A DNA stretch of 64,000 nt, from NCBI RefSeq assembly GCF_044647545.1, contig NZ_CP172818.1. One strand, written 5' to 3'. Under the pieces are notes generated by a model, which was not told the origin of the DNA, did no database searches, and saw only the letters and a list, made by a program, of their open reading frames with translations. Of this stretch, positions 8,701-53,900 are shown one piece after another. Both the position numbers and the translations under genes were made by a program. The first letter of the stretch is position 1; the number at the start of each line of letters is the position of its first letter. Source of the DNA: Escherichia coli. GTDB lineage: Bacteria > Pseudomonadota > Gammaproteobacteria > Enterobacterales > Enterobacteriaceae.

Positions 8701-9455
8701 GCGATGATGTAACTGGAGTTATACCAGTCGGCAGATTCCGGCACGTCGGTTTGTTCGCCCCAGGTCATCGGCGAGGCGGGCGGCAGGTCGCAATACCAGT
8801 CGTAGAAGCTTAAACAGGTGCCACCTAACAGCGACAGATAACGTGTTCCGGCGGCGTAAGAAACCATCGACATCGCCGGGATCGGCGAGAAACCGGCAAC
8901 GCGATCCGGGCCGTAAGTTTTGATGGTCCAGACGTTAGCAGCGGCAATCAGCTGGTTTAGCTCCTGCCAGTTGGAGCGGATAAAGCCGCCGCGTCCACGT
9001 ACTTGTTTGTAGCTCAGGCACTTTTGCGGATCGTTCATAATCGATGCCCACGCCAGTACCGGATCGCTGTGTTGCTTGAGGGCTTCGCGCCACAGTTCAA
9101 TCAGTCGTTTACGAATGAGCGGGTATTTCAGACGGTTAGCGCTGTAGAGATACCAGGAGTAACTTGCGCCACGCGGGCAGCCGCGAGGTTCATGATTGGG
9201 CAGGTCAGGGCGAGTGCGCGGGTAGTCGGTCTGTTGGATTTCCCAGGTCACCAGACCATTTTTAACGTAGATTTTCCAGCTACAGGAGCCTGTACAGTTA
9301 ACACCGTGGGTGGAACGCACGATTTTGTCGAACTGCCAACGCTGGCGATAGCTGTCCTCCCAGTCGCGGTTGCTATGCATCACCTGTCCGTGACCATCGG
9401 CAAAGGTTTCGCCCTTTTGTTTGAAGTAGCGAAAGCGATCCAAAAGTTTACTCAT
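5715..9455 (-). CDS. narZ: nitrate reductase Z alpha subunit (molybdopterin)
   Basis: Track ORF is 1287 aa; trimmed to the ATG at 9455-9453 (cat on plus strand), which has an AGGAG RBS upstream and gives 1246 aa. Confidence 0.9.
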   Translation of the reverse strand: MSKLLDRFRYFKQKGETFADGHGQVMHSNRDWEDSYRQRWQFDKIVRSTHGVNCTGSCSWKIYVKNGLVTWEIQQTDYPRTRPDLPNHEPRGCPRGASYSWYLYSANRLKYPLIRKRLIELWREALKQHSDPVLAWASIMNDPQKCLSYKQVRGRGGFIRSNWQELNQLIAAANVWTIKTYGPDRVAGFSPIPAMSMVSYAAGTRYLSLLGGTCLSFYDWYCDLPPASPMTWGEQTDVPESADWYNSSYIIAWGSNVPQTRTPDAHFFTEVRYKGTKTIAITPDYSEVAKLCDQWLAPKQGTDSALAMAMGHVILKEFHLDNPSDYFINYCRRYSDMPMLVMLEPRDDGSYVPGRMVRASDLVDGLGESNNPQWKTVAVNTAGELVVPNGSIGFRWGEKGKWNLESIAAGTETELSLTLLGQHDAVAGVAFPYFGGIENPHFRSVKHNPVLVRQLPVKNLTLADGNTCPVVSVYDLVLANYGLDRGLEDENSAKDYAEIKPYTPAWGEQITGVPRQYIETIAREFADTAHKTHGRSMIILGAGVNHWYHMDMNYRGMINMLIFCGCVGQSGGGWAHYVGQEKLRPQTGWLPLAFALDWNRPPRQMNSTSFFYNHSSQWRYEKVSAQELLSPLADASKYSGHLIDFNVRAERMGWLPSAPQLGRNPLGIKAEADKAGLSPTEFTAQALKSGDLRMACEQPDSGSNHPRNLFVWRSNLLGSSGKGHEYMQKYLLGTESGIQGEELGASDGIKPEEVEWQTAAIEGKLDLLVTLDFRMSSTCLFSDIVLPTATWYEKDDMNTSDMHPFIHPLSAAVDPAWESRSDWEIYKGIAKAFSQLCVGHLGKETDVVLQPLLHDSPAELSQPCEVLDWRKGECDLIPGKTAPNIVAVERDYPATYERFTSLGPLMDKLGNGGKGISWNTQDEIDFLGKLNYTKREGPAQGRPLIDTAIDASEVILALAPETNGHVAVKAWQALGEITGREHTHLALHKEDEKIRFRDIQAQPRKIISSPTWSGLESDHVSYNAGYTNVHELIPWRTLSGRQQLYQDHPWMRAFGESLVAYRPPIDTRSVSEMRQIPPNGFPEKALNFLTPHQKWGIHSTYSENLLMLTLSRGGPIVWISETDARELTIVDNDWVEVFNANGALTARAVVSQRVPPGMTMMYHAQERIMNIPGSEVTGMRGGIHNSVTRVCPKPTHMIGGYAQLAWGFNYYGTVGSNRDEFIMIRKMKNVNWLDDEGRDQVQEAKK

Positions 9456-9484
9456 GACATAACTCCTGCTCCAGGAATGAATTG

Positions 9485-9540
9485 GGATCTGATGCCTTGT
9501 CGGACGCGACACGGTTGTAGCCTGATAAGACGTGTCAGGC
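9485..9540. repeat. REP-like palindromic element in the narU-narZ intergenic region
   Basis: gtagcctgataagacgtgtcaggcatc resembles the REP consensus. Confidence 0.45.
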
Positions 9541-9549
9541 ATCGATCTC

Positions 9550-10938
9550 TTATTTTTGGCTGAACTTCCGCCGACCATAAACCAGCCAGGTCAGTAGCAC
9601 GCAAACGATGTAGAAGATTAAAAACACTTTCATCGCGCCCACCGGAGAGCCGGTCATATTGAGCGACATGCCAAACGCCTGCGGAATAAAAAAGCCGCCC
9701 ACTGCGCCAATGGCTGAGATAAAGCCCAGAGCGGCTGCCGTTTCGGTGACGGCTTCTCTTTGAGCTTGCTCATCACTACCGCCTTTCATCTTCACCCGAT
9801 AAATGGTTATCTGGCGAAAGATGACGGCGATCATCTGGAAAGTAGAACCACTTCCCAGACCCGCGGTCAGAAACAGCCCCATAAATACGGCGTAAAATGC
9901 GATGAAATTACCGGAGCCTGTGCCCGGTAAGGTAAGGAACAGCAGGGCGCTGAAAATCGCCATAAAAATGAAGTTGATCAACGTCACCCGCACGCCGCCG
10001 AATTTATCGGAAATAGCACCACCAACCGATCGCGCGATGGCACCGATAAATGGGCCAAAGAACGCCAGGCGCAGAATATTCACATCCGGGAACTGGGTTT
10101 TTGCCAGCATGGCAAAACCCGCAGAAAAACCGATAAACGAACCGAAGGTGGCAAGATAAAGCAGGCTCAGTAGCCAGAGATGCAGGCGTTGTAAGACAGG
10201 GAGCTGGTCGGCAATTGAGGCGCGTGAACTGGCGATATCATTCATCCCTGACCAGGCGGCGATCGTGGCAATCGCCAGTAATGGCACCCAAATCCATGCG
10301 GCATTCGCCAGCGACATCACCGAACCGTCGGCCTGCGGTACGCCATTGACGCCGAGAAAGGCAAATACGGGTACAAAAATGACCAGCGGTGCAACCAGCT
10401 GCATCACACTTACACCTAAGTTTCCTAATCCGCCATTAATCCCAAGTGCGCTCCCTTGTTTGGCTTTTGGGAAGAAGAAACTGATATTGCCCATGCTCGA
10501 AGCAAAGTTCGCACCTGCAAAACCGCATAGCAAAGCGATAACGATAAATATCCCAAAAGGAGTATTCGGATTCTGCACGGCAATTCCGAGCCAGACGCAA
10601 GGAATAATCAGGATTGCAGTACTAAAAACCGTCCATCGGCGTCCACCGAATATAGGCACCATAAAGGAGTAGGGGACACGCAATAATGCGCCAGAAACGG
10701 AGGGTAATGCGGTTAATAAAAAGAGTTGATCGGTAGTGAAATTAAAACCGATTTTATTGAGATTAACAGTAACTGCGCTAAATAGCATCCAGACACAGAA
10801 GGCAAGAAGTAGACAACTGACTGATATCCAGAGGTTTCTTCGTGCAATATGCTTTCCTTTATTTTCCCAGAAGGCCGGATTTTCTGGTTTCCAGTCGCGT
10901 AAAAGATAACGACTATTTTTCTCATTTTGCAGTGCCAT
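9550..10938 (-). CDS. narU: nitrate/nitrite transporter (MFS)
   Basis: Track ORF is 476 aa; trimmed to the ATG at 10938-10936 to give 462 aa; polytopic membrane protein. Confidence 0.88.
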   Translation of the reverse strand: MALQNEKNSRYLLRDWKPENPAFWENKGKHIARRNLWISVSCLLLAFCVWMLFSAVTVNLNKIGFNFTTDQLFLLTALPSVSGALLRVPYSFMVPIFGGRRWTVFSTAILIIPCVWLGIAVQNPNTPFGIFIVIALLCGFAGANFASSMGNISFFFPKAKQGSALGINGGLGNLGVSVMQLVAPLVIFVPVFAFLGVNGVPQADGSVMSLANAAWIWVPLLAIATIAAWSGMNDIASSRASIADQLPVLQRLHLWLLSLLYLATFGSFIGFSAGFAMLAKTQFPDVNILRLAFFGPFIGAIARSVGGAISDKFGGVRVTLINFIFMAIFSALLFLTLPGTGSGNFIAFYAVFMGLFLTAGLGSGSTFQMIAVIFRQITIYRVKMKGGSDEQAQREAVTETAAALGFISAIGAVGGFFIPQAFGMSLNMTGSPVGAMKVFLIFYIVCVLLTWLVYGRRKFSQK

Positions 10939-11247
10939 ATTGTTCCTCACATGCACACATTGGTAATGAAAAAAAGACAAAACAGGAGGTAAGGCGCAAT
11001 AGCCAGTTATTAGAATTAAGGATGAATCAGGTGAAGTGCTGATTAGAAGAATAGATAAGAAAGCGTAACTGCGGAGGCAGAATGTGGATTAAACAGACAG
11101 ATATGTGTTACTAAATGTAACCATCAAACGGGGGTTAATCTTTGAACGTATGTCATGTTTCAACCCTTCAGATCGTGAATCTAAAGGGTTGCATATTAAC
11201 TATATTCTCAACAAGACCAGACAATTATAGAATTAGTGATGATTTAT

Positions 11248-38665: not shown

Positions 38666-38995
38666 TGTTATTTATCGTGAGATATTGCGTGAATAATATT
38701 TTTTCATTGAAAAACAATATAGTAGGGAGCTATTGGGTGGTGGCAAGGTGTTTTATGCTGTTATTTTTATGTGCATTCTGTGCCTCCTGAATTATCACGT
38801 AAAAATCAGACCTTAAAATATCATTATTAGTACGCGGTTATTTACTTTGAACGCATTTATAAAATTATTACATAAAAATAGCGAATATTGCTAAAATCCC
38901 CGCCAACGATGTGTTGACGGGGCTGTGATTATTTTGGCAATAATACCCCGGCATAAGTATTTACCGGATGAGAAAGATATTGTTTAACGCGTTAA

Positions 38996-39379
<384 letters not shown>

Positions 39380-41203
39380 AAACCGAGTAATAATGGGATA
39401 TAAGGTAATGGTGAAAAAAGGATAAACGAAAAATAAGAAAGTCTATGTATGAATACGCGCTGGAACCCATGCGGTGGCCTGCCTGCAATTTGCTAAATGT
39501 TGGCTTCAGTTAACTTTATCGTTGAGTAGATAATGTAATTGTCTTGGATAGAAAAATGTGATGTAAATGTCTATATTAAAAAGATTTTAGGATGAAAATA
39601 AACTTGATGATTAAAAAAGGCTAAAAGTAAACTAGAATGAAAATTACCAATGTAACATATAAAAATGGTGAATAAACTGATAAGGTGGGAGGAAGAAAAA
39701 TAATGATAGGAATGTGCTATTCATAAATAATATCGGGTCGGTGAGAATTGATAAATTATATGTATCCGATAGATAAAAAATGATAAACTAAGAGGGTAAT
39801 GGAATTAGTATAATGAGGTAAGTAAAATAATTGATATGATCAGAGTGATGGCTGCTATCATGAAAAGTAGTTACTGAATTATGGTCTGTAAGGTATGTAG
39901 CTCTGGGGGCATAAATTAAATAAAAGAAACTATGTTCTGAGAAAAGAAATTATTATTAATAAAATGCATTGTGTAATGATAAAAATAGTTTTTGGCCTGC
40001 ATAGCGTTGTTGATAGTGAATAATTTAGGAAAAAATAGGCCAGCAGAGTGGGTTCCCTGGTCGCGCTGTCTTTGTTTGATGAACTCTTTCAGAGTGCTGT
40101 CATCATCATTTTTCATGAGTAAACTGCGACTCTTTTCAAGGTAAAAACAGTAATCAATTTGAGATTAATTGAAAACTGGAGGGCTGGCTCCTGCATTCTG
40201 CTCCTGCCGGGCTTTTTGATTTGTTAATTTTGATTTATTGTAGGGTGGCTGGCTGCTGTGATAAACTCTTTAAGCTTGCATCTTTTAACGACCTGCGGAT
40301 TGGGGGGCAAGGTTATTTTTGCTTAGATCGTGTTGTAGATAACTGATGTTTTCTACTGTATAGAAAGGAATAATCGTTTTACGTATAGAATTGGCTTAAG
40401 TCTGTGTTGGGGTTATGCGGGTAATTTGACTGATGGGAAAAATTTGGGTAATTTCAGAATGGAATATTTCTGTAAACAGTGAGAATAAGAGGTTATCAGG
40501 TAGATTTTTATGTGGCTGCTTTTTTATCTGCAACAGGGCAGCAAGGAAACGCCATCAGCTTAAGGTCTTTGGAATGCTGATATGGCTGATAAGAGCTGTA
40601 GGTAAAATCATTGGGAAATAGCTGTATAATTACGGGTGAAGTCACAATAAAATTGGGGTGTGAGTGCGGATAGGTCTGACTTTAAGCCTGCCGAGCGGCA
40701 AGGACATCGATAACGCACATTATGGAGGTAAAGAGAATAATTGTATGATACTGTCCGTCAGTTGTCGAGAATGCGTAACCTGATAAGAATAGGAAGCGTA
40801 GTAGTTACTTACTCAGATAATGCTTTGATTGATCAGGTGAGGATTATTTGGCAGGTCGGAGCTTTAAGCAGGTAGCTTGGCTGGTGTGTGGCGATAGTGT
40901 TGGTGTGCGTGGGGTTGAAGTTGGGTGCCTTGGGGTGTGTTGGTGGGGGTGTCTTGGAAGTAAGAGAGAAAAAGTGGGTGAGTGAAGTAGTAAAAGAGAA
41001 GAGAAGAAGGGAAAAAGTAAAGGTTAAGTAATTGAAAAAATGAATAAAATGAGAAAATGGAATTGAGATAAAATAATATGAAAGGTTATGAAATGATAAA
41101 TATGTGATGAATGTATTATTTATTAATAAATATATCGCCTAAAAACAACGCGGGGCAGGGAATGACTGCATTTAATTTTTAGTAGGGTGCGTGGTGACTC
41201 TCG
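39380..41203. other. ORF-free block with strong strand asymmetry (C-depleted, A/G/T-rich on the plus strand); nature unknown
   Basis: No ORF of 70 aa or more on either strand in about 1.8 kb; positions 40981-41100 contain no C at all. Confidence 0.9.
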
Positions 41204-41974
41204 TTAGCAAATAATCAATCCTAAAGCACTCATCGTGTTGTCCGTGTTCATACCGGTGTGCCTTTGACAACGGTACTCCTTAGAAACTCTCTTTGGACTG
41301 TTGCCGAAATGTTTGCGGAACGCATAAATAAAATAAGATGTACTCGCATAACCACATTGTTCGGCAATTTTATTGACTGAACCTTCTACGCGTATCAAAT
41401 TTTTTGCGTGCTGCATTCTGGCATCTAAAAGAATCTGTGAGAATGTCGTTTGCTCTTGCTTTAGTTTTTTCTTCAACAGGCTTTCACTGATGTACAGGCA
41501 GTCACAAATATCTTTCAGCTTCCATGGGTGCGCCAGCTTCATGTTGACAATATTTCTCACTTTCCCGGAAACGGATAGCACACCGTTAGTTAATAGTGTA
41601 ATGAAACCTTTGCATGCGGCAAAAATAGACAGGCAAGAAAAAAGCAAAAGTTCTGAAAAATTATGATGATTGCGTTCTTCCGAGTTGAGATAAGCAATCA
41701 TTTCATTAAGCAATCCAGTCGGTACATTTGAAGCACGTAAAAACTTCGCAGGAACAGGCACCGTCACTGTCTGAATGTTAGTGCATTGTAGATATTTTTT
41801 AATGGTATTTTCATTAAATCCGATTTCTTTGAAATGCCGCTCATAAGGTTCAAAATGCGTACGAACAGCGTTATCTACCATCAGGATCTCGCCGTCAGAG
41901 AAGGCGTAATCTTTATCTAAAATGTTAGCGTTGAAGGCATGATGAATAAATATAACAGAACAAACGAGCGACAT
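41204..41974 (-). CDS. ydeO: AraC-family acid-resistance regulator
   Basis: 256-aa ORF with a C-terminal AraC-type HTH; immediately downstream of safA. Confidence 0.9.
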   Translation of the reverse strand: MSLVCSVIFIHHAFNANILDKDYAFSDGEILMVDNAVRTHFEPYERHFKEIGFNENTIKKYLQCTNIQTVTVPVPAKFLRASNVPTGLLNEMIAYLNSEERNHHNFSELLLFSCLSIFAACKGFITLLTNGVLSVSGKVRNIVNMKLAHPWKLKDICDCLYISESLLKKKLKQEQTTFSQILLDARMQHAKNLIRVEGSVNKIAEQCGYASTSYFIYAFRKHFGNSPKRVSKEYRCQRHTGMNTDNTMSALGLIIC

Positions 41975-42493: not shown

Positions 42494-44773
42494 TTAATTT
42501 GATGGTTCTAATTCAACCGGAATACTTTTATAGCCAGGAATGCCACTTAATGGATCGTGGTTATCAAGTGTTAGCATGTGATTCGATTCTGGAAAATAGG
42601 TCACCAGTGAGCGGTCAGCCATAGGGTAAATGACCACTTTTAATCTATCCATGCGTCGTGAGCTACGTTTACCGTCTGGCGTGAGTGCAATAAGATTAAC
42701 TCTTTCGCCGTTTTTTACACGGCAAATTTTAGCTTGTTTAGCACTCATAAAGACCACATCTCGTTGACCGAATACACCTCGATAGCGATCATCCATACCA
42801 TAAATCGTCGTGTTGTACTGATCGTGGCTGCGTACTGTCGCCATGACCAGTTTACTGTTAAACGCTGAAGAGGGATCTTCTAACAGCCCTTTGCTGGTAA
42901 TGAAATTAGCCTTACCTGACGGCGTCATCCAGCGCCTTTCAGCAGCTGCGTTTATCAGGTGAAAACCACCAGGATGACGGATGCGCTGGTTATAGTCGGC
43001 AAACTCTGGCAGCACAGCTTCAATGTCATTGCGAATGCGATCATAATCTTCCACCAGATACTCCCAGGCTACCACGCTCTGGGGTAGTGCTGCCTGCGCG
43101 ATTCCCGCGACCACTGCACACTCTGATTTCAGCATTACACCGGCGGGTTTTAACACACCACGCGAGGCATGAATCATCGACATTGAATCTTCAACGGTTA
43201 CCGCCTGCGCACCGCTTTTTTGCATGTCAATCTCGCTACGTCCCAGAACCGGCAGAATATAGCTATGCCGTGCGGTCAGCAGATGAGAGCGGTTAAGCTT
43301 AGTGGCTACGTGTACAGCCAAATCTAATTGCGTTAACGGTACAGCGCTCGCTTCCCGATCTGGCATTGCCAGCGCAAAGTTGCCCCCCATGCAGATCAAT
43401 GCTCGAGCTTGCCCCGTACATATTGCTTGCATGCTGGCAATTGCAGCATGTCCAGGTGCATGAGGTGGGGTGAAACCATAGCGCTCACCCAGGCGAGCCA
43501 GAAACTCTGCAGACGGTTTCTCGGTGATACCGACGGTTCGGTCGCCCTGTACATTAGAGTGACCTCGTAGTGGGCAGATGCCCGCACCAGGCTTGCCAAT
43601 GTTACCTTTCATCAACAGCAGATTGACCAGTTGCTGTACATTCTGGGTACCATGTTCGTGCTGAGTGATCCCCATTCCGTAACAGATAATGGTGCGGTCG
43701 GCAGCGGCATATGCATCAGCCAGTTCGGCGATTTGAGTCTGACTTAGTCCAGAAATACGCTCGATATCTTTCCACTCGGAATTGAGAACGTCACGGCGTA
43801 GCTCGTCAAAGCCGACGGTATGCGTTTGAATAAATTCGTCATCCAGCAATGAGGGCCGACCTGCGGCGCTTGCAGCATCATCGCGCTCAATTAACAGGCG
43901 CATCATCCCCTTGAGCAACGCCATATCACCACCAATGCGCACGTTGTAGTAGGCACTGGCCAACTGAGTCTCAGAGTTCGTCAGCATTTCAAACGGGTTT
44001 TGCGGTGCGGTAAATCGCTCCAGGCCACGTTCCTGTAGAGGATTGATGGCGATCATTTTCGCTCCCCGTTTCACTAAAGCGCGCAACGAACTCAGCATGC
44101 GAGGGTGGTTTGTACCAGGGTTATGCCCAATGCAAATGACTAAATCGCATTTCTCAAAGTCTTCCAGCAACACGGTCCCTTTACCTACACCGATACTCGC
44201 TGCCAAACCCACACTGGTCGGTTCATGGCACATGTTGGAGCAGTCGGGGAAGTTATTGCTCCCGTATTCACGGGCAAAAAGCTGATAAAGAAAGGCAGCT
44301 TCATTGGAAGTGCGGCCCGAAGTATAGAATTCAACCTGATTGGGATCACTATAGCTTTGAAGGCGTTCGCCAATTTCGTCGAAAGCTTGTTGCCAGCTTA
44401 ATGGCTTGTAACAGTCGCTGACGGCATCATATTTCAAAGGCTGGGTGAGACGCCCCGCAGCCTCAAGCTCGTGGTCTCCCCAGGTAAGTAATGATTGAAC
44501 CGTATTCTCAGCAAAGAAAGAGGCGTTTACCTGCTTATCCGTGACTTCCCAGGCGATTGCTTTTGCGCCGTTTTCACAAATGTCGAATGACGCACTGTGC
44601 TTAGGATCTGGCCATGCACAACCCGGACAGTCAAAGCCCTCTGGCTTATTCATGTCAAACATGGCAATAACATCCTGGCGTATATCCATCTGCTTACGTA
44701 CTGCATTCGCTACGGATTTAACAGCACCCCAACCACCGGCAGCCCCCTGGTAGGATTCAATTTTTTTCTTCAT
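42494..44773 (-). CDS. ydeP: molybdopterin oxidoreductase-family acid-resistance protein
   Basis: 759-aa ORF, formate-dehydrogenase-like. Confidence 0.92.
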
Positions 44774-45021
44774 CTACTTATCCTGTGTGGAAATGAATTA
44801 TTAGGATTTGAAATAGCGATGATGCACAGTATATACAAAGGGATTATCGTCAATATGGATATATAAGAGTAGGGGACTACTCTCTTTCTATTTTTAATCT
44901 ATTATCGTTAAATAATAGAATGGTATAAATACGATAAGTTAAGCATCATCTCTCATAGTGTTTAAATTAACATGTTTTTCAATATAAAAAATAAGACTCT
45001 GGCGTTAATTGTGCGCGGATT

Positions 45022-45041
45022 TTCTTACAGGTGTAGGATAA
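45022..45041. promoter_or_regulatory. EvgA-box-like inverted repeat upstream of ydeP
   Basis: ttcttacaggtgtaggataa; shares TTCTTACAG[C/G]TGTAGG with the safA upstream motif. Confidence 0.6.
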
Positions 45042-45111
45042 TAGCCTTCACAAAATAATTATCCGCGCAATTTTCGCGAATGGAGCGCATAGACTAAGGT
45101 CAAAATCACAA

Positions 45112-46026
45112 TTATTCATAGATAAAAGTGACACCAATGACTGACTGGACGGTTCCGGCTGCAACCTTGTTTCCTGTTTGTCCATAGGTTGCGCTTAAAC
45201 CCAGAGGTACTTTGCTTTTATTTACTGTCCCCAGGGAGACATTTTCTCCCGTTGCCAGTATTTTTCCATTACGTATCAGAGAGACACCCACTCCCGATGC
45301 TTTTGTTGCATCAGGTGCCGTGTTAGCAAACACTTGTCGGGCACTGTCAGTGGTGGCACCCGAAAGATAAAATGAGAGCTTTTGTTCGCTTGAGCAATAT
45401 ACGCCAAGGGGTATTTCTGCGCTTCCAGGAAAGTCCGGGAGATCCACGGTGACATTACGACTATCAACAGTGCAGCCGCCTGTTGGCATAACAACACTGT
45501 TATTTGAAATAATATTCCACGTAAAATTACGCGGATTTCCGCTTCCTAACGTGGCAATTTTATACATATGAATACGGGCAATAACTTCCCCGGCTTTTAT
45601 GACAACTCCACCGGCCGCCCCGACTGGGGTAATATAGAGTTTTAACGGTAATGGCATCGGTGTCTTATCACCAATATCCAATACGTTGGTATTTGTCGTC
45701 AACGGGAAGGGGTAGGTCACATTATTCCAGTACAGCGATCCCTTATATGACTGTAGAGAGCCTGCGAAAGCTGAGCCTTGTACCAGGTTTATATGATCAG
45801 TGTCGTACCAGCCGCCGTAATCATTCCAGCAACTTATATGCTGAGACAAGTCTACAACCAGATTCTGGCCCGGCTGTATTACAGGGTCGAGATTAACATA
45901 AACAGAGGTTGTACCAGCTCCAATACTTGACCCGCCATCGACATTACAACTGAAGGCAAAAACTTTACCTGCCATTAATAGAAAATAAATACCGAACAGG
46001 ACCTTTATACTGATTGTTTTACCCAT
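45112..46026 (-). CDS. ydeQ: fimbrial adhesin-like protein (FimH-like)
   Basis: 304-aa ORF with a signal peptide, last gene of the fimbrial cluster. Confidence 0.85.
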
Positions 46027-46085
46027 GATATATCCTAAGGTTAAAAAATTGATTTAAAAAGAAGGCTAAGAAAATCGAATCGACG

Positions 46086-46589
46086 TTATTGCCAGGTGTA
46101 GATCACATTGATTAGCGCCTCGATCGTTCCCTGGCTTGCGTTTCCATTCACCGTGATAGCTCTTGCCTTAAGTGGAAACTGTGCATTACGAGTGATCTCA
46201 TCAACAATAACCGTTTTGCTATCGCCATTTTTTAACGTCGCATCCTGGTCATCCCTCAGCTCTATCTGAATATTTTCGGCAGTACCTTCATTTTTGTAAT
46301 AACCCGTATTGTCAGTTGAACCTGTCACGATTGCCGTCACTGCACTTGTTTCAATCGGACAATCGGTTAATGACAAAGTAATATTGTGCCAGCCAGATGC
46401 AGAACCAGGTTGTTGCAGATTGCGTGTATAAAGATCCCCGAGATTAACGTTAGCTTCTTTGGTTTGAATAGTGCATGGTTTAGCGACTACCCGACCATTA
46501 ACAGTGATAGTGACATCGGCGGCCTGGAGAGTTGCTGTGAATAATGTGCAAAACGTAGCTAACAGGAACCTCTTGTGAAGTCTTTTCAT
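46086..46589 (-). CDS. ydeR: fimbrial minor subunit (FimG-like)
   Basis: 167-aa ORF with a signal peptide. Confidence 0.85.
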   Translation of the reverse strand: MKRLHKRFLLATFCTLFTATLQAADVTITVNGRVVAKPCTIQTKEANVNLGDLYTRNLQQPGSASGWHNITLSLTDCPIETSAVTAIVTGSTDNTGYYKNEGTAENIQIELRDDQDATLKNGDSKTVIVDEITRNAQFPLKARAITVNGNASQGTIEALINVIYTWQ

Positions 46590-46601
46590 ATCTGACTCTG
46601 A

Positions 46602-47132
46602 TTATTGAAATTCAAGGGTAAAGGTTGCCGAAGCGCTCACCAGTCCAGGATTGACGGACTTCTGAGTTGACTTCAAACGAGCGGAGTAAGGCAAAATATT
46701 GTTCTGTTCTGGTACCAATGGGATCCACTGCATCCCGGCATGAAGGTCATTCAATTTCACCGGACGCATATTTCCGTCCAGTATTTCTATACCCAAACCG
46801 GAGGCCGTATTGCTTCCTTCATCCAGTTTCAACAGAGTATTATTTTCTGCATCCTCAATACCGTTAAATGCAACCCGAACTCCCGTTGTCCCTTTGCTGC
46901 ATTCACTTAATGTAATCTGAAAAGGGACGGCTGGACTTGTGCTACCGGTCGTTGGAAATTGTCTGGCACTGTTTTTTTGGAGATCTACGGTAAAATTAAG
47001 CGAATCCGATGAGACTGTGCAGCCATAATCGAGGACGCGCCCGCTAATTTTAATAACGCTATCTGCGGATAAAGCAGAATAGGTGGTTAACCCCAGACAT
47101 AAACCGAGGAAAATAATGTTATTGTATTTCAT
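46602..47132 (-). CDS. ydeS: fimbrial minor subunit (FimF-like)
   Basis: 176-aa ORF with a signal peptide. Confidence 0.85.
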   Translation of the reverse strand: MKYNNIIFLGLCLGLTTYSALSADSVIKISGRVLDYGCTVSSDSLNFTVDLQKNSARQFPTTGSTSPAVPFQITLSECSKGTTGVRVAFNGIEDAENNTLLKLDEGSNTASGLGIEILDGNMRPVKLNDLHAGMQWIPLVPEQNNILPYSARLKSTQKSVNPGLVSASATFTLEFQ

Positions 47133-47145
47133 AATCTATTGTTCC

Positions 47146-48294
47146 TTAGCGACAGATTGCTGTCTGCTGGTTCAGTAAGGTACCAGGAGAAACTTCAGGA
47201 AGCTTGTACTCGACAATACAGTTTGAGTTTTTATCTTTGCCCCATGAAACCTGTAATTTCCCTGACTGTGGAAGTCCAGTCAGATAAACCTGACCGTTTT
47301 CCGCGACAATGCTGCCATTTTTATTCTGTCCATGTGTGACAATTGCACCGAATGGAACGCTCTTATTACCGTACTTCAACGTCATTAATACTTTCCCGCC
47401 GATTTGTGCATTAAATGTTGCTCTGGCAATAGCACCGTGAGTTGGGATGACAGTGACAACGGTTTCATCCAGTTCAACATTATCTGCAAGGGAATTCGCG
47501 TTAAGAGCGACACGATTTTCTCTATATTCTGTCGCAAATGGTAATATGGCATAGCCACGCCAGTCGGTATGAATACCGGTCTGGTTCTCTATTTTGACAT
47601 TATCAGCGCCAGGAGCCTTAACCAGAACCATTGTGTCGCCCAGCGGCTGTCCAAAGGTGATGCCATCAGCATGAGCAATAATGCCACCACTCATTCCGTA
47701 ATAAATCTGGCTGCTGTCACCACTCCGACTGTAACCGATATTCGTATTACCGTAAGCTCCACGATAATTAAGAGAACTGTAACCACTGGTGCCAGACGAT
47801 GTATTACCCCCGTGGGTGTTACCGACCTGAACACTATAATTCAGGTTATTATCCGGCAGCAGAGTGCCATAAACTCCCGATAGATTGGTCATGCCGCCTT
47901 TCAAATCGTTTGACATACTGTAACTGGCGTTTGAGTTACGAAATGTCGACTGACTGTCTGTACGCATCCAATGACTGAAGGGAACATTAAGCGTAAAAGC
48001 AAGTAAATGATCCCGATCGTTTTGCCATATATTATTGGAATAGCTGTAATTCAGCGAAGTCGTAATATCACTAAACGGCACATTTAATCCAAATGATATT
48101 TGCTGGTCGCTGCGTGACGTGTTCCAGTAACTTTGGCGACTGGCACTGAAAAATGTCGTACCGTAATTTCCAAGCTGCTGAGAGATGCTTATTTGTTCCT
48201 GACCACGCTTACTGTAGAACAGATTAAAATAATCAATAAATTGTGTCTGCTCATTGCTGTCTCCGGTAGGAGGCTTGACGGTGTAACCACTCAT
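47146..48294 (-). pseudogene. ydeT: C-terminal fragment of a fimbrial usher (FimD-like), N-terminal half missing
   Basis: 382-aa ORF beginning at an internal Met with no signal peptide; ushers are typically over 800 aa. Confidence 0.8.
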
Positions 48295-48546
48295 TCGACT
48301 GTAGGCACTGTCGGATAAGTTATAAAAACCTTGCGTAGAATAGCGATATCCTGCGACCTGGATATTGGTTCCACAACAAGTTTATTGCAGCACTTGTTGA
48401 AGAGAGTATTTGCAAAGACATTTTATGTCGCTAAATAACATGACGATTTCATTATGCATGTTATTTATAAACCGTGACTAAACAGAATATTATTGCGAAC
48501 AAGGGAAGTGTCAGGAAAGGTCAAGAGCGACCAATGGCTTATATGG

Positions 48547-48975
48547 CTATAAATCATTAGCTATAGTTAATGTTTGCCTGGTGTAACTAACACGGAATTG
48601 CTCTAAACAGATAAGTGCAGGGTTTATTAAAGCTGACCGACAGACTTTCTTAACCTGGTAATATCTCTCAGGTGACTCTCCAAACATCCGCGAATATTCC
48701 CGACAGAAATGGGATAAGCTTTCGTAACCGACAGCATAGGCTGCAGTGGTGACATCGTAATGTTCATTCAGTATCAGTCGCCTGGCTTCATTGAGGCGTA
48801 GCCATTTCTGATACCGGAGTGGACTCATTCCCGCAAGCTGTCTGAAGTGTTGATGGAAAGGGGGGCGTTCATTTGCACGCGGTTTGCCAGCCTGACTCTT
48901 CAACGCAGGGAAGATGCGGCAAACGGCAAACCTGCATACCAGCCAGCCTATATCCGGTATGCACAGGCCAATCAT
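48547..48975 (-). pseudogene. yneL: AraC-family regulator fragment (HTH region only)
   Basis: Short ORF carrying only an AraC-type HTH segment (LAGMSPLRYQKWLRLNEARRLI...). Confidence 0.65.
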
Positions 48976-49159
48976 GAAAGAGGAGAGGCTTTATGTTCTG
49001 GAACCCTGAAGTAATAACGACGACCGGAAAATCGCTTCGCATCACTCAAATCCAATTTAACATAATATACATTATGCGCACCAACATAAACCAAGGAAGA
49101 ATCCAGTCGTTGGCGGTCATGATTGTCCTGCTCATTAACAACGACCAAAACCCCATATC

Positions 49160-50482
49160 TTACTTAATACCGTATTCTCGGCTTAACCGGTCGTGCAACC
49201 TCAACACATTGGTTTCAACTGCCGTCACCACGTTCTCCGGAAAATCTGTCGGTAATGAAGTCTTCACGTTATCCAGTGCTGCTGGAATCATTCTGGCAAA
49301 GTCACTCAGGATTTCATGCATCTGCACTTCCGGGAATCTCAGCACCTTTGCTGTCGCCAAAAAATGTCGCGGATAAATTTTATCGATTGCCGTTTTTTTG
49401 CCTTTGGATGCGTTAAGCCCCATTGCCAGTTTGAGATCGCTGATGTGTATTCCCGTACCGCCAAGGACCGGAAATGCTGAAATGATGTCGTAAAATGGCG
49501 TGAGTCGATAACTGCCGCCAGCCTGAATAAATACGGAGAAGTTTTTTGCATGACCGTCCGTTGCGCCAATCAACCACTGGAAGACCTGGAATTTCATAAA
49601 ATCATAGCGATCTTTCAGCGCCTCGCTGGACCCCATCAAAAAAGCCATGATCCGCGCGATGCCTGGGCCTCCATCTGATTCATATTTCACCGATGAAGGT
49701 AAACCGAATGTCTGACACATATCCTCCTGTGGCAAGCGAAGTAAAACCGTTCGCTCAGCATTCCAACGCCTGTCAAAACGTTCGACCGCTAACGCGCGCA
49801 CATTTCCCGCTTTAATGATTTCTGCGTCCGGAACATTCAACCCAAGTTCTTTCGCCAGCAGCAGACAGTAATACTCATTATCAACGCTTTGGCTGAGATC
49901 GAGCGTCGCATTGGGCTGCCTGATTTCGCCAATCGGTAATTTAATGATGTGCGTCGTCGGCGTTATTCCTTTCGGAATGCACCAGTCATTGCCTATTCTG
50001 AGCAGTGCTGTCTTCTCCTGTGCGCCAGCAACCGAGATGCGAAAGTCATTTTCTTCTCTAATCATGCCTAGCGGGATATCTGCTTTATAAGCCGTTAATA
50101 CTTCTTCAAGTCTGGCTTCAGTAAGCTTTTCCCATGCCATTATCGGATGCGTTACGGTTTCGTCTTCGGGTATTAACGTCACGGCACCAACGCTGTCTCG
50201 CCCTATTTCTGACAATAAATCAAACGGTTGTCTGGATTTGGCATGATAACGTTTAACGATCCGGTCACGTACAATCGGGCTATCGGGTAACAGGTTATCG
50301 AAGAAGTTAAATACGGCATCAGAGGTGATATTCCCCCTCTGCAATGGCAGCGAAAGTGACAACGGTCTGGCATAACGGCTTGCTAACCACTCCGGTGCAT
50401 ACTTAAAGGTGTGCGCGCCGTTGGCTAACTTCGTTAACTCGCCTACCCGCTGGTTGTTCATCCAAGTGACAAGTTTAGGCAT
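49160..50482 (-). CDS. hipA: HipA serine/threonine kinase toxin
   Basis: Trimmed to MPKLVTWMNNQRVGEL (ATG at 50482-50480), 440 aa; overlaps the hipB stop by 1 nt. Confidence 0.95.
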   Translation of the reverse strand: MPKLVTWMNNQRVGELTKLANGAHTFKYAPEWLASRYARPLSLSLPLQRGNITSDAVFNFFDNLLPDSPIVRDRIVKRYHAKSRQPFDLLSEIGRDSVGAVTLIPEDETVTHPIMAWEKLTEARLEEVLTAYKADIPLGMIREENDFRISVAGAQEKTALLRIGNDWCIPKGITPTTHIIKLPIGEIRQPNATLDLSQSVDNEYYCLLLAKELGLNVPDAEIIKAGNVRALAVERFDRRWNAERTVLLRLPQEDMCQTFGLPSSVKYESDGGPGIARIMAFLMGSSEALKDRYDFMKFQVFQWLIGATDGHAKNFSVFIQAGGSYRLTPFYDIISAFPVLGGTGIHISDLKLAMGLNASKGKKTAIDKIYPRHFLATAKVLRFPEVQMHEILSDFARMIPAALDNVKTSLPTDFPENVVTAVETNVLRLHDRLSREYGIK

Positions 50483-50748
50483 TACCACTCCAGATTTTGC
50501 TGTTCTGTTGATTCTGGCGAGGCATTTTTCGCGTCGCATAGCGTCATTGAGAGTTCAAGCGACTGTAAAATCTTAAAAAATGTCGTGAGCGTGGTATTGT
50601 CAGGGTTGTTTTCGAAATTGGAAATCGTCGCCTGCTTAATACCAATTTTTTTCGCCAGCTCGCTCTGCGTCCAGCCATTTTGCTGGCGAACCAGTTTCAT
50701 TGCATTCGCCAATTGCGTTGGGCTATAGATCTTCTGAAAGCTCATCAT
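50482..50748 (-). CDS. hipB: HipB antitoxin (Cro/C1-type HTH)
   Basis: Trimmed to MMSFQKIYSPTQLANAMKLVRQQNGWTQSELAKKIG, 88 aa. Confidence 0.95.
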   Translation of the reverse strand: MMSFQKIYSPTQLANAMKLVRQQNGWTQSELAKKIGIKQATISNFENNPDNTTLTTFFKILQSLELSMTLCDAKNASPESTEQQNLEW

Positions 50749-50769
50749 GTCATACGTCCACAGCAAGTT

Positions 50770-50882
50770 TATCCGCTTAAGGGGATATTATAAGTTTTAT
50801 CCTTTAGTGAGGATAAGTCAATCTGGAAACACATCTTATCCGCTCTACGGGATAAACGCTGCGATATCCGCGATCGCGGATA
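50770..50882. promoter_or_regulatory. four HipB operators (TATCC-N8-GGATA) in the hipBA promoter
   Basis: Exact TATCC-N8-GGATA matches at 50770-50787, 50798-50815, 50837-50854 and 50865-50882. Confidence 0.9.
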
Positions 50883-50957: not shown

Positions 50958-53900
50958 TTACCAGCTATATTTCACACCCAGCATGCCCTGAGTATCGCTA
51001 TAGCCTTTATCACCTAGTTGCACACCGACATTCCCCCACAGGCTAAGGTTGTTATTTACTTTCGCCTCAACCCCGGTACGTACTTCACCGAGATTACGCG
51101 CACCATCACGGCTTACGGTTTGACCATTCATCTTCACGGCGTAGACTTTGCTGTTGTTGATCCAGTTCGCTTCAATGTAAGGCTGGAACTCACGCTGTTT
51201 ACCATTGTCACGCTGGTGTAGTCGTCAGCAGAACGGTTATCGGAACTGACGCTGTTATCAAACCAGTTATACAGCGCCCAGCTGTCAACATAAGCGCCGG
51301 TCTTATTCGCATCGTTCTGATACCAGGTCGCGTACAGTCCTGCGCTGTAACCGCTGATGCGCCCATCCGATTTATAACCCACATGATTACTCTGAGTATT
51401 ACTGTGCTGATTGGCATAGCCTGCCATGACGCCGAGATGCCAGCGATCCTGCGCGTTGCTACTCCACTGCGCCAAATCGCCGCCCTTGCCATATTAATGG
51501 CAGAGTCGGAACCGAAAGCAATTTCCCCCCCACGATATCCGTCGTACCCTGATACGCCGCGGAATCGTTGTTAAGAGTCAGGATCCCGGTACCCAGTTTT
51601 GTCACATCACCGCTACCGCTGATACTGTGCGTCATCGCCCAGCTACGCTCAGTGGAGATGGTGAGCAGGCCATTATTGATAACGGAAGCATCACCCAGGT
51701 TTTTCTGCTCGTTGACGCTGAGCGCGCTGCCTGTATCAATGTTGAATTGCCCCACAAAGCGGCTATTATCGCCATCCAGCTCTACATCTGTCCTGGCGGT
51801 TGCGCTCACGATACCCTTCCCGCTTATGCCATTGCGCAGTTCGCCAGTCACGTTTTTTAGCGTTAACAGACCGTTATTGGCAATATTTCCGCTGCCTAAC
51901 CCCTGCGTATTATCGAGGCTGACTTCCGCATTTGGGCTAATGCTGGTTAACGCATTGTAGCGTGCATTAAGCCCCTCGATAGCCAGCGTTCCCCCTGTAA
52001 CATTCAGGTTTCCGCCACCTGTCAGTTCACCCTGACTGATCCCACCTTTATTTACCGTCAGCGCCCCCTCTTTGAACAAAACAGTCGAACCCATCTGCCC
52101 GGTGAATGTCTCTACCGTCTGCGTCGATCCATTAAGATCGACGATGGCCGCGTTGCTGATGTTCAGTTCCCGGGTGTTGCCAAGTGCACCATCCGCATCG
52201 GTACGTAATGTCCCCATCTGAACGTAGGTTGCCCCCTGATAGTCGTTCTGAGCGTTGGAAAGCGAAACCTGTCGCACCGTATTGATTGCCAGATCCCCTT
52301 CACCACCGATTTTTGCCGACATATCGGCCGTTGCGCCATAGGCTCCGCCATGTTCGGCTAACGTCAGCTTTTGCCCTCCATGGATGTTCAGCGCTTTCAG
52401 CCCATAGTTAACGTACAAACCATCACCTGGTGCGGTCGTGAGGCGGAATCCATAATCACCCTCGGCGACCACCGTTCCGTTTTGCGCAATGTGTAACGTT
52501 TTGTCCGCTTCCACCTCGTCGCCCTGTAAATCACGTAACGTTAATGAGCCACCCGACCCAATAACCGTTTGCGCCTTCACCAGTTGAACGCCGACATGGC
52601 TATCATCGTGTTCCAGCAAATTGAGCGTCGTCAGAGGGTTATTCGCCATGGGATCATTCCACGGTTTAGGCACGTCGATAAGCACGTCGCCCGTCCCGTT
52701 TACCTTATAGTTACGGCCTTTCCAGGTGTAGTCACTCGCGCCGACAACCAGCGTATCGACGCTGATATATCCCTCTGCAAGCGTCGCAGCAGGAATATCC
52801 GTATCGAAAATGAGCGTACCGCCATTCATGGCCAGTCCACCAATGGATTGCTCTCCCACGTTTACCGATGTGGTATTTTCAATGTCAGACTGCAACATCG
52901 CGTGAGTAAGCGCAGCGGTGTTGTCGCGTTCCAGAGTGAAGGTACTGTCTTTCAGTTGGGCAACACCGGCGAATTCAGTCCCTGTTGCATGGGTAAAGCC
53001 AAACATCTTGTCGGAGGATGACAGCTGCACTCGCATCAAGCCATCGCCTTTGAGCGCATTGGTCAGCGTGTAATCTCCTGCGCTGTTCGTTGATGCGAGA
53101 ATGTCGAGCGTACCGGGGCTTGCAATGGTGACTTCACTCGAACCCATGCCTGTTACCCCATCTGCCGTATGTGACGCAATAGTCAGGAGGCCGTCATTGA
53201 CCAGCGTTTTACCGCTATAAGTATTCCCTGCATTGAACACCGTATGGCCTGCATCATGCATCACTTTTCCGTCTTTATCGTCACCCGTAATCAGCATATC
53301 GACCTGGTAGCCGGCATCACTGTTATTGGTATGATTAAAGACAAAAACGCCTTCGCCAAGACCAAACTCCACTTTCGTCGCATTGGTAATAAACCCGGCA
53401 TCTGCCGCTACCTCACCGTGAGCAGCACCAATGTTTAGCGTTCCTACAGCAGGCTCAAAAACACCTAAGTAAACTTCTCCACCTTCGACATTCAGCGTGC
53501 CGTTATTCGTCAGGGTTAACGTACCTGTGCCAGTCGTCCCTACGTTCATATTGAATGTTTCAAGAAGAGAGTTCTGCCCATCCACCCGCACGTCGCCCTT
53601 ACTTTTGTCATTCAGAGCTATCTGTGTATCACGCGCTTTAACTATACCTCCGGTGGTAATATTCAGTTCACCCGTGCCTAATACACCGACCTGTAGCAAT
53701 TGGGCGTTAGTAGATGACGTTTTTAAATTCCAGAGACTATGCGTTGAAATATTAACTATCCCCTTACCGGAGGCATTTCCTCCGATAAATCCATAGCCCG
53801 TTGAATTAAGGGTGGCACCATTACTGACATTTACGATGCCGCTACCAAAATTACCGACATTGATACCTACAGTATCGAACGATGATGTCGCATCCATCAG

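Follow-up and report, generated by a model that had tools for sequence, protein, structure and literature searches.

A probable K-12-type remnant of the F9 chaperone-usher operon in an Escherichia coli sequence whose assembly is probably chimeric or reference-guided

The window, that is, the whole 64-kb stretch of E. coli DNA analysed here, very probably carries a K-12-type remnant of the F9 chaperone-usher operon, linked to its promoter and produced by one 3,279-bp deletion, next to an older and unrelated truncation in yneL' (Table 1). The locus lies between ydeP and the hipBA/autotransporter region, as judged from the ORF map and annotated relatives, and the same chromosomal placement of f9 has been described (Wurpel 2014, PMC3966885). 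The F9 (Fml/Yde) operon is the closest paralogue of the type 1 (fim) fimbriae. Its layout parallels that of fimAICDFGH, with YdeS, YdeR, YdeQ and YdeT' corresponding to FimF, FimG, FimH and FimD, although it occupies another locus and equivalents of fimA, fimI and fimC are absent from the window. Published accounts assign galactosides to FmlH as receptors and mannose to FimH.

The same gene order (ydeQ-ydeR-ydeS-ydeT'-yneL'), the same flanks (ydeP, hipBA) and a nucleotide-exact junction are found in K-12 MG1655, where the usher remnant measures 1,227 bp, as it does in the window. Both sequences differ, however, by 2–5% in their flanks, with 95.6% identity over 4.4 kb, those of the window being ST648-like, and the small indels in yneL' are the window's own. 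With the intact F9/Fml operon (CFT073 c1931–c1936; O157:H7) the window has in common the promoter, the 72-nt leader start, 408 usher codons, the adaptors and the adhesin; missing from it are the chaperone and major-subunit genes, usher codons 1–475 and ~179 nt of the leader.

Table 1. Features of the F9 remnant and its surroundings (window coordinates)
Feature	Position	Strand	Basis or remark
Terminator-like hairpin and T-run	45061..45081	-	Consensus scan; 31 bp past ydeQ stop
ydeQ = fmlH, two-domain tip adhesin of F9/Fml fimbriae	45112..46026	-	304 aa, intact
ydeR, FimG-like minor/adaptor subunit	46086..46589	-	167 aa, intact
ydeS, FimF-like adaptor subunit	46602..47132	-	176 aa, intact
ydeT', usher remnant, codons 476–883 of 883	47146..48372	-	tblastn, FimD alignment, NCBIfam
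Deletion junction ggttcc/acaacaag	48372..48373	.	Alignments to intact loci and K-12
First 72 nt of the 251-nt f9 5' leader, fused to usher codon 476	48373..48444	-	Projected start site
Putative f9 promoter: -35 TAGTCA, 18-bp spacer, -10 CATAAT	48451..48480	-	Sequence reading and promoter scan
yneL' ORF with AraC-family C-terminal helix-turn-helix fragment	48547..48975	-	NCBIfam, homology ~48664–48864

The three minus-strand ORFs ydeQ, ydeR and ydeS are whole, as an earlier sequence-only reading of the region had listed them, and each of the encoded proteins is 100% identical to its counterpart in strain 500010, a comparison strain with full usher and chaperone. Over residues 25–184, YdeQ is identical at 160 of 160 positions to the lectin domain in the crystal structures of FmlH (6AOW and related entries); it also carries a pilin domain and aligns over its whole length to FimH (E = 4e-81). 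YdeR and YdeS scored above the cutoffs of the NCBIfam FimG and FimF equivalog models (256 bits with a cutoff of 220, and 239 bits with a cutoff of 200, respectively). The hairpin downstream of ydeQ probably marks the end of the operon, but is to be read as suggestive, the count of terminator-like sites in the region being not above chance. No RNA family was returned by an Rfam scan of positions 44700–49300. Searches by tblastn with the 236-aa F9 chaperone and the 187-aa F9 major (rod) subunit gave no match in the whole 64-kb window, in line with the absence of both genes previously noted.

When an 883-aa usher was used as tblastn query, the sole match covered its residues 476–883 (window 48372–47149), as expected from the earlier description of an usher remnant without its N-terminal half; the finding named beforehand as one that would refute the earlier reading, a full-length usher and a chaperone in the region, was thus not made, the search returning this piece and no chaperone. 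The ydeT' frame keeps 408 codons (46%), with 475 missing, aligns to residues 426–833 of mature FimD (E about 1e-163) and matches NCBIfam usher models at profile positions 470–877 of 877. With domain limits taken from published FimD structures, ydeT' falls short of a full-length usher, in which a signal peptide and an N-terminal domain are accompanied by a 24-strand barrel with its plug and by C-terminal domains: it retains the second half of the beta-barrel and both C-terminal domains, and is without the signal peptide, the N-terminal domain, the plug and the barrel's first half. Four codons upstream of the junction the frame is closed by a TAA, and the first usable start is an internal ATG at 48294; the 382-aa ORF initiated there (47146–48294) is the portion of the usher frame past this first available start.

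The junction was placed by alignment to four intact loci (L001, L002, L003 and L035) and to that of K-12 (L004), and comparison with the intact orthologous operon, a check proposed earlier, defines a deletion of 3,279 bp relative to the intact O157:H7 locus, with its breakpoint at 48372/48373. The junction is identical to those of K-12, Z142-1 and Res13. The sequence-only reading had taken the whole gap between ydeT and yneL (48295–48546) for a deletion junction; the junction does fall inside it, but as one clean breakpoint, with 78 bp (48295–48372) of in-frame usher on one side and 174 bp (48373–48546) of f9 promoter and leader region on the other. Microhomology at the breakpoint amounts to 1 bp (C) and no IS scar is present, and a repeat or IS was discarded as the cause of the deletion or of its recurrence. 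A 12/19 similarity located 20–40 bp from the breakpoints is weak and was judged to be due to chance. A single illegitimate deletion very probably took the ~179 nt at the end of the leader, the major subunit, the chaperone and usher codons 1–475, joining leader position +72 to usher codon 476.

In CFT073 the f9 transcription start has been mapped by 5'-RACE to a G located 251 nt upstream of the major-subunit ATG, with TAGTCG-18-CATAAT as the published promoter (PMC3966885). This G projects to G 48444 of the window in gap-free alignments with two of the intact loci (L003, L035). The identity of the promoter listed in Table 1 rests on this projection, with a -35 box that differs by one base from the published hexamer, and promoter-like matches in the region are no commoner than in shuffled sequence. 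The deletion appears to have spared the f9 promoter together with 72 nt of leader, which now face ydeT'-ydeS-ydeR-ydeQ. Because this promoter survives upstream of the junction, a ydeT'-ydeS-ydeR-ydeQ transcript would still be possible, which supports the earlier suggestion that expression of the adhesin genes might persist. The native f9 promoter has been described as repressed by H-NS and more active at low temperature (Wurpel 2014, PMC3966885), and it is to this H-NS-silenced promoter that the tip genes would remain wired.

The fragment of an AraC-type regulator upstream, described in the sequence-only reading as part of the decayed cluster, is real, but it does not belong to the fimbrial deletion. 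Residues ~40–110 of the yneL' ORF match the last ~70 profile positions of NCBIfam AraC-family models (RhaS, AraC and RclR-type). Longer relatives align over 48864–48664 only, with ~67 homologous residues, and one 191-aa relative does so over its residues 113–179 only. The ORF shares the C-terminal helix-turn-helix segment with AraC/XylS regulators, but lacks the first helix-turn-helix motif and the N-terminal domain, so that neither a complete ~100-aa two-helix-turn-helix domain nor an N-terminal sensing/dimerisation domain is encoded. In a search for a full-length ancestor among 5.8 billion proteins, the close relatives listed were of 193 aa or less and none was a complete AraC-type protein. 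An N-terminally truncated pseudogene ('missing N-terminus') is also annotated in 500010, O157:H7, GPEC60 and strain 48, of which the former two have a full f9 usher and chaperone and the latter two most of the operon. As yneL' is already fragmentary in strains with an intact operon, it falls outside the fimbrial deletion, and its truncation is a separate, older and unrelated event. Relative to all the strains compared, the window copy carries a 2-bp and a 1-bp deletion of its own. Wurpel 2014 (PMC3966885) states that evidence for a regulation of f9 by yneL' is lacking.

Of 5,426 complete E. coli genomes, 1,372 (about 25%), K-12 included, matched a 400-bp query spanning the junction without interruption. 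Other strains have lost parts of the operon in other ways: in SCU-172 the deletion is another one, with microhomology of 6 bp, and both IS2 and IS4 have inserted; GPEC60 is without the chaperone; the usher of strain 48 is damaged internally; and an IS2 interrupts the major subunit gene in strain 500010. Fusion ORFs of yneL' with the major subunit are also encoded in some genomes. Since other lineages broke the same operon differently, the f9 locus is a recurrent target of decay.

Whether the deletion belongs to the organism that was sequenced is doubtful, as the assembly of the window is probably chimeric or guided by a reference. The reading towards which we lean is that ST648-like reads were laid on a K-12-like structure, the f9 deletion being an artefact of this, and the true organism may well carry an ST648-type f9 with full usher and chaperone, perhaps with an IS2 in the major subunit. 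Where aligned, the whole window is 99.96–100% identical to the ST648-like strain 500010 (NZ_CM129041), compared with about 97% to K-12, but at four large structural differences, the f9 junction among them, it shows the K-12 state. Stretches of 643 bp and 1,539 bp are absent near 12296–12621, as in K-12, and hipBA (49221–50827), which is absent in 500010, is present; between 49213 and at least 50700 the window shows no mismatch to K-12. Most of the few base differences from 500010 outside the corrupted stretch described below lie within ~30 bp of these boundaries and are K-12 alleles, as at 12615, 12618, 18879, 48400, 50831 and 51484. Moreover, the window's own junction haplotype (A at +17, A at +28, G at +45) was found in none of ~1,370 junction-bearing complete genomes, the best of which is 98.5% identical to the window junction query, and in none of the 23 metagenome contigs fetched by a junction-spanning pattern, all of which carry the K-12-type T, A and A at these positions. 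When the 63-nt haplotype around the junction was searched for exactly in metagenomes, 0 matches were likewise obtained, and an exact look-up of the 382-aa YdeT' ORF gave no recorded entry. The flank of natural junction-bearing genomes (T, A and A at +17, +28 and +45 in K-12, Z142 and Res13) is therefore not the one present in the window. In addition, positions 38989–41220 are corrupted, with poly-G runs at about 39166–39375, about 2 kb in place of the expected 10.3 kb (pqqL through ydeN), and ydeM-ydeN at 76–79% identity with heavy base dropout.

Some observations do not fit an artefact of a simple kind. K-12-specific segments of 323, 233 and 786 bp are absent from the window, as in 500010, and a divergent 125-bp stretch (48834–48959) also follows 500010, which rules out a plain K-12-referenced consensus. 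At the junction, +17 and +45 carry the 500010 allele but +28 that of K-12, a pattern that simple read clipping fails to explain, and the yneL' frame of the window matches some independent database proteins. A natural mosaic, in which the K-12-type deletion and hipBA recombined into an ST648-like background, or in which the deletion arose twice, is an unlikely but conceivable source of such a sequence. Natural genomes with the junction already differ in its left flank, as K-12 and Res13 do at -69 and -116, and therefore natural recombination near the junction does occur; real genomes carry the junction on several left-flank haplotypes, and decay events have struck the f9 locus independently and often enough to make it a hot spot. 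A natural origin would nevertheless have to account for haplotype switches that coincide with at least four structural breakpoints, within 8–70 bp, and for a haplotype seen in no other genome or metagenome contig, and with 1 bp of microhomology there is no reason why the same breakpoint should arise again. In any case, structural calls made from the window, such as the f9 deletion and the presence of hipBA, are not safely attributable to the source strain.

Judged from its gene content, the locus would be unable to build a pilus by itself, since chaperone and rod subunit are absent and the usher is neither complete nor exportable. Subunits of chaperone-usher pili fold by donor-strand complementation, an established mechanism. 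Any exported YdeS, YdeR and YdeQ would lack their cognate chaperone and, by this mechanism, should misfold and undergo degradation. The earlier view of a probably non-functional cluster is upheld by these data, a deletion-decayed operon without chaperone, major subunit or functional usher, and agrees with published work (PMC3966885). The intactness of ydeQRS is uninformative on function, since the frame of the dead usher has survived just as well: in 13 of 13 contigs with the junction this frame is open, as are ydeQRS, and dN/dS is ~0.1 for every piece. Intact ydeQRS in deletion-bearing genomes are thus no sign of selection. As the dead usher piece gives the same value, the differences predate the deletion.

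We regard it as very unlikely that the remnant is alive, with FimC/FimD folding a ydeS-ydeR-fmlH tip module onto type 1 rods to give galactoside-specific hybrid pili. Such a role would draw on the retained f9 promoter, on three intact ORFs with a lectin domain identical to that of functional FmlH, and on the likeness of YdeR and YdeS to FimG and FimF, above the equivalog cutoffs, and of YdeQ to FimH from end to end. Type 1 and F1C fimbriae are also reported to exchange minor subunits. The open frames and low dN/dS do not argue for it, being shared by the usher piece, and experimental cross-assembly was not found in the literature searched.

Disruption of f9 in K-12 MG1655 and in all phylogroup A strains has already been published (Wurpel 2014, PMC3966885), and the annotation of ydeT and yneL as pseudogenes is standard, while counts of the 12 chaperone-usher operons of MG1655 routinely include 'ydeQRST' (PMC8174762). 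The biological weight of the finding is small and the locus is ordinary; what is added is the exact breakpoint, the f9 promoter on the retained side, the frequency of the junction and the warning of a chimeric assembly. That the orphan tip module is still folded and displayed by FimC/FimD or other gamma-type machinery, at low temperature or under H-NS-relieved conditions, is highly improbable; if true, the module, which is present in roughly one quarter of the complete E. coli genomes, would give hybrid pili with the galactoside specificity of FmlH.

The minus strand across 42494–50766 carries, in the ORF map, ydeP, ydeQ, ydeR, ydeS, a 382-aa ORF, a 142-aa ORF, hipA and hipB in that order, and the ydeP-ydeQRST-hipBA locus was the placement found by megablast in essentially every one of 5,426 complete E. 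coli genomes, in agreement with the coordinates and gene calls of the sequence-only reading. Residues 25–184 of YdeQ were identical (160/160) to the crystallised lectin domain of FmlH, the F9 pilus adhesin (PDB 6AOW and related entries), and FimH aligned to YdeQ end to end over its full length (E=4e-81). YdeR and YdeS scored above the curated NCBIfam cutoffs for FimG (256 vs 220 bits) and FimF (239 vs 200 bits), respectively. The three genes had been called intact, and their products indeed gave 100% tblastn matches to the corresponding proteins of strain 500010, which has a full usher and chaperone. Farther along, at 50958–55361, an ECSE_1600-family autotransporter (K-12 yneO/ydeK-ydeU locus) is split into a 1,300-aa ORF and short C-terminal ORFs; all relatives examined (K-12, 500010, Res13 and O157:H7) have it annotated as frameshifted, and in the window it has the structure of strain 500010, without the 233-bp and 786-bp segments of K-12.

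Features of the F9 fimbrial locus and its surroundings (window positions)
Feature	Position	Strand	Length	Source
ydeP	within 42494-50766	-	759 aa	ORF map
ydeQ	45112-46026	-	304 aa	ORF map
ydeR	46086-46589	-	167 aa	ORF map
ydeS	46602-47132	-	176 aa	ORF map
382-aa ORF (part of ydeT')	47146-48294	-		ORF map
142-aa ORF (yneL')	48547-48975	-		ORF map
hipA, hipB	49221-50827	-		ORF map
Terminator-like hairpin 3' of ydeQ	45081-45061	-		sequence scan

Upstream of the 382-aa ORF the usher frame continues to 48372, giving 408 codons that correspond to positions 470–877 of the 877-position usher profile and to residues 426–833 of mature FimD. Judged by published FimD structures, this span covers the latter half of the barrel and both C-terminal domains; what is missing is the signal peptide, the N-terminal domain, the plug and the first barrel half. 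The entire 64-kb window was then searched by tblastn with an usher (883 aa), a chaperone (236 aa) and a major subunit (187 aa) from strains carrying them. Only usher residues 476–883 were matched (48372–47149), and the chaperone and major subunit gave no match anywhere in the window. The cluster is thus truly truncated in this sequence: an usher remnant without its N-terminal half, and neither chaperone nor major subunit gene, as had been claimed, with no full-length usher present. The usher frame has a TAA stop four codons upstream of the junction described below and, after it, no start codon before the ATG at 48294, ahead of which direct reading found no obvious Shine-Dalgarno sequence; a YdeT' product, if made, would be a fragment confined to the cytoplasm, lacking a signal peptide.

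To define the deletion, the window was aligned with four loci in which the missing DNA is still present (GPEC60, strain 48, 500010 and O157:H7). Left homology stops at 48372 and right homology begins there, with a 1-bp overlap (ggttcc/acaacaag, junction 48372/48373), and apart from that single C neither a repeat nor an IS remnant was seen at the breakpoints in these alignments. Compared with O157:H7, 3,279 bp are absent (9069–12347 of its locus, L035), comprising usher codons 1–475, the chaperone gene, the major subunit gene and ~179 nt directly upstream of the major-subunit ATG. K-12 has the identical junction and an identical 1,227-bp usher remnant length. The ydeT-yneL gap (48295–48546) had been read as the deletion junction; the junction does lie inside it, but the gap consists of 78 bp of in-frame usher and then 174 bp that belong to the DNA upstream of the major subunit gene.

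The origin of this sequence required consideration. The window is not K-12, sharing with it 95.6% identity over the 4.4-kb locus and about 97% over the rest, and is 99.96–100% identical to the ST648-like strain 500010 (NZ_CM129041) across the 64 kb where aligned. Strain 500010 and its relatives have a full usher and chaperone and no hipBA, and at four large insertion/deletion differences the K-12 state is what the window shows, with two insertions missing, the f9 junction, and hipBA present. Near 12296–12621, 643-bp and 1,539-bp segments of 500010 are missing, as in K-12; this is the yddL/leucine-rich-repeat region, where the missing 500010 DNA includes an ompC-like porin gene and the arrangement matches the decayed yddL' of K-12. 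hipBA agrees with K-12 at every base from 49213 at least as far as 50700, and its immediate flanks return to 500010 sequence; the DNA around hipBA differs from K-12 by 2–5%, and the near-identical strain 500010 lacks these genes. The window departs from 500010 at few bases, and most of these are K-12 alleles lying at most ~30 bp from structural boundaries (~12296–12621, 48372/48373, 49220/49221 and 50827/50828). The haplotype following the junction (A, A and G at +17, +28 and +45) was absent from all junction-bearing complete genomes (best match 98.5%) and from all 23 metagenome contigs, which uniformly read T, A, A. In addition, 38989–41220 is corrupted, in a way that suggests an error of sequencing or assembly and not biology: long poly-G runs at about 39166–39375 are followed by a C-depleted ydeM-ydeN copy with 76–79% identity and systematic single-base dropout, and ~2 kb stand in place of an expected 10.3 kb (pqqL, yddB, yddA, ydeM and ydeN in K-12 and 500010 alike).

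Haplotype switches falling exactly at no fewer than four structural breakpoints are as expected of a chimeric or reference-guided assembly, which they suggest the window to be; in a natural recombinant such switches would be very improbable. On the other hand, three smaller K-12-specific segments are absent from the window, and the left flank of the junction varies among natural junction-bearing genomes. On balance the deletion in the window is probably, though by no means certainly, scaffold-derived. The description of the window's sequence content is unaffected by this doubt.

In CFT073, 5' RACE placed the f9 transcription start at a G lying 251 nt before the ATG of the major subunit gene, behind a promoter with -10 CATAAT, -35 TAGTCG and an 18-bp spacer, and H-NS binding and repression were shown, as was expression at 20 °C (Wurpel et al. 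2014, PMC3966885). As the right breakpoint lies at -179 relative to this ATG, the f9 promoter is on the retained side, and the minus strand of the window has TAGTCA (48480–48475), an 18-nt spacer and CATAAT (48456–48451). The -251 position projects onto G 48444 in a gap-free alignment, so the deletion puts usher codon 476 directly after leader position +72. Of the six putative H-NS motifs (PMC3966885), the five at -111 to +57 are retained and the one at +89 is lost. Given the retained promoter and the hairpin after ydeQ, a transcript running from the f9 promoter through ydeT'-ydeS-ydeR-ydeQ would be plausible.

Under the established mechanism of donor-strand complementation, pilus subunits depend on their periplasmic chaperone for folding and on a complete usher for polymerisation. 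Because it has no chaperone, complete usher or rod subunit, the locus by itself would be incapable of producing F9 pili, and the earlier view of a probably non-functional cluster holds on these requirements and the gene content. Function could come only through cross-assembly by a paralogous system, for example FimC plus FimD, which sequence similarity permits and nothing here supports. In pairwise comparisons of K-12 with strains whose operon is intact, dN/dS was ~0.1 for ydeQ, ydeR and ydeS and equally for the dead usher piece; the differences are thus older than the deletion. On junction-bearing contigs ydeQRS were intact in 9–11 of 9–11 copies and the usher-remnant frame was open in 13/13. 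Intactness of ydeQRS was rejected as a sign of function, since the dead usher frame is just as open and dN/dS is alike; the time since deletion is too short for decay to be informative. The truncated operon is confirmed, and its interpretation as decayed fimbriae is supported with refinements.

One refinement concerns yneL', whose match to the AraC-family profile is confined to the last ~70 positions. The upstream regulator thus survives as a helix-turn-helix fragment, as first read, but not as a product of the fimbrial deletion: the same AraC gene, likewise annotated as missing its N-terminus, is found in 500010 and O157:H7, with full usher and chaperone, and in GPEC60 and strain 48, with most of the operon. 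Because it is already short in these strains, yneL' falls outside the deletion event, and its truncation appears to be separate. Relatives among the matches listed from 5.8 billion proteins were all short (≤193 aa), the longest aligning to the window only over 48864–48664. The window copy carries a private 2-bp and a private 1-bp deletion (at 48670 and 48861) relative to all compared strains; the former restores an AraC-like C-terminal motif, FGESPERY, and yields a frame that some database proteins (P0001, P0002, P0010) also use. The f9 5' region is variable, with hypothetical regulators and no evidence tying them to f9 control (Wurpel et al. 2014, PMC3966885).

A 400-bp query with the junction at its centre was contiguous in 1,372 of the 5,426 complete genomes (~25%), K-12, DH5alpha and W3110 included, its two halves mapping apart in the remainder. 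The truncated f9 operon is an already known feature: Wurpel et al. (2014) list MG1655 and every phylogroup A strain as f9-disrupted, and 'ydeQRST' of MG1655 is routinely counted among the 12 chaperone-usher operons of that strain (PMC8174762). SCU-172 and MSB1_4I have another, independent deletion, with 6-bp microhomology and 214 bp more usher kept; in SCU-172 (NZ_CP054353, 4769–5541), the one of the two that was examined, this usher-to-leader deletion is accompanied by insertions of IS2 (usher) and IS4 (ydeQ). The operon of GPEC60 is without a chaperone, the usher of strain 48 is internally damaged, and the major subunit gene of 500010 is interrupted by IS2. Some other E. coli carry fusion ORFs of the yneL' helix-turn-helix fragment with the C-terminal part of the F9 major subunit (P0041, P0045). 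The f9 locus is a recurrent target of decay.
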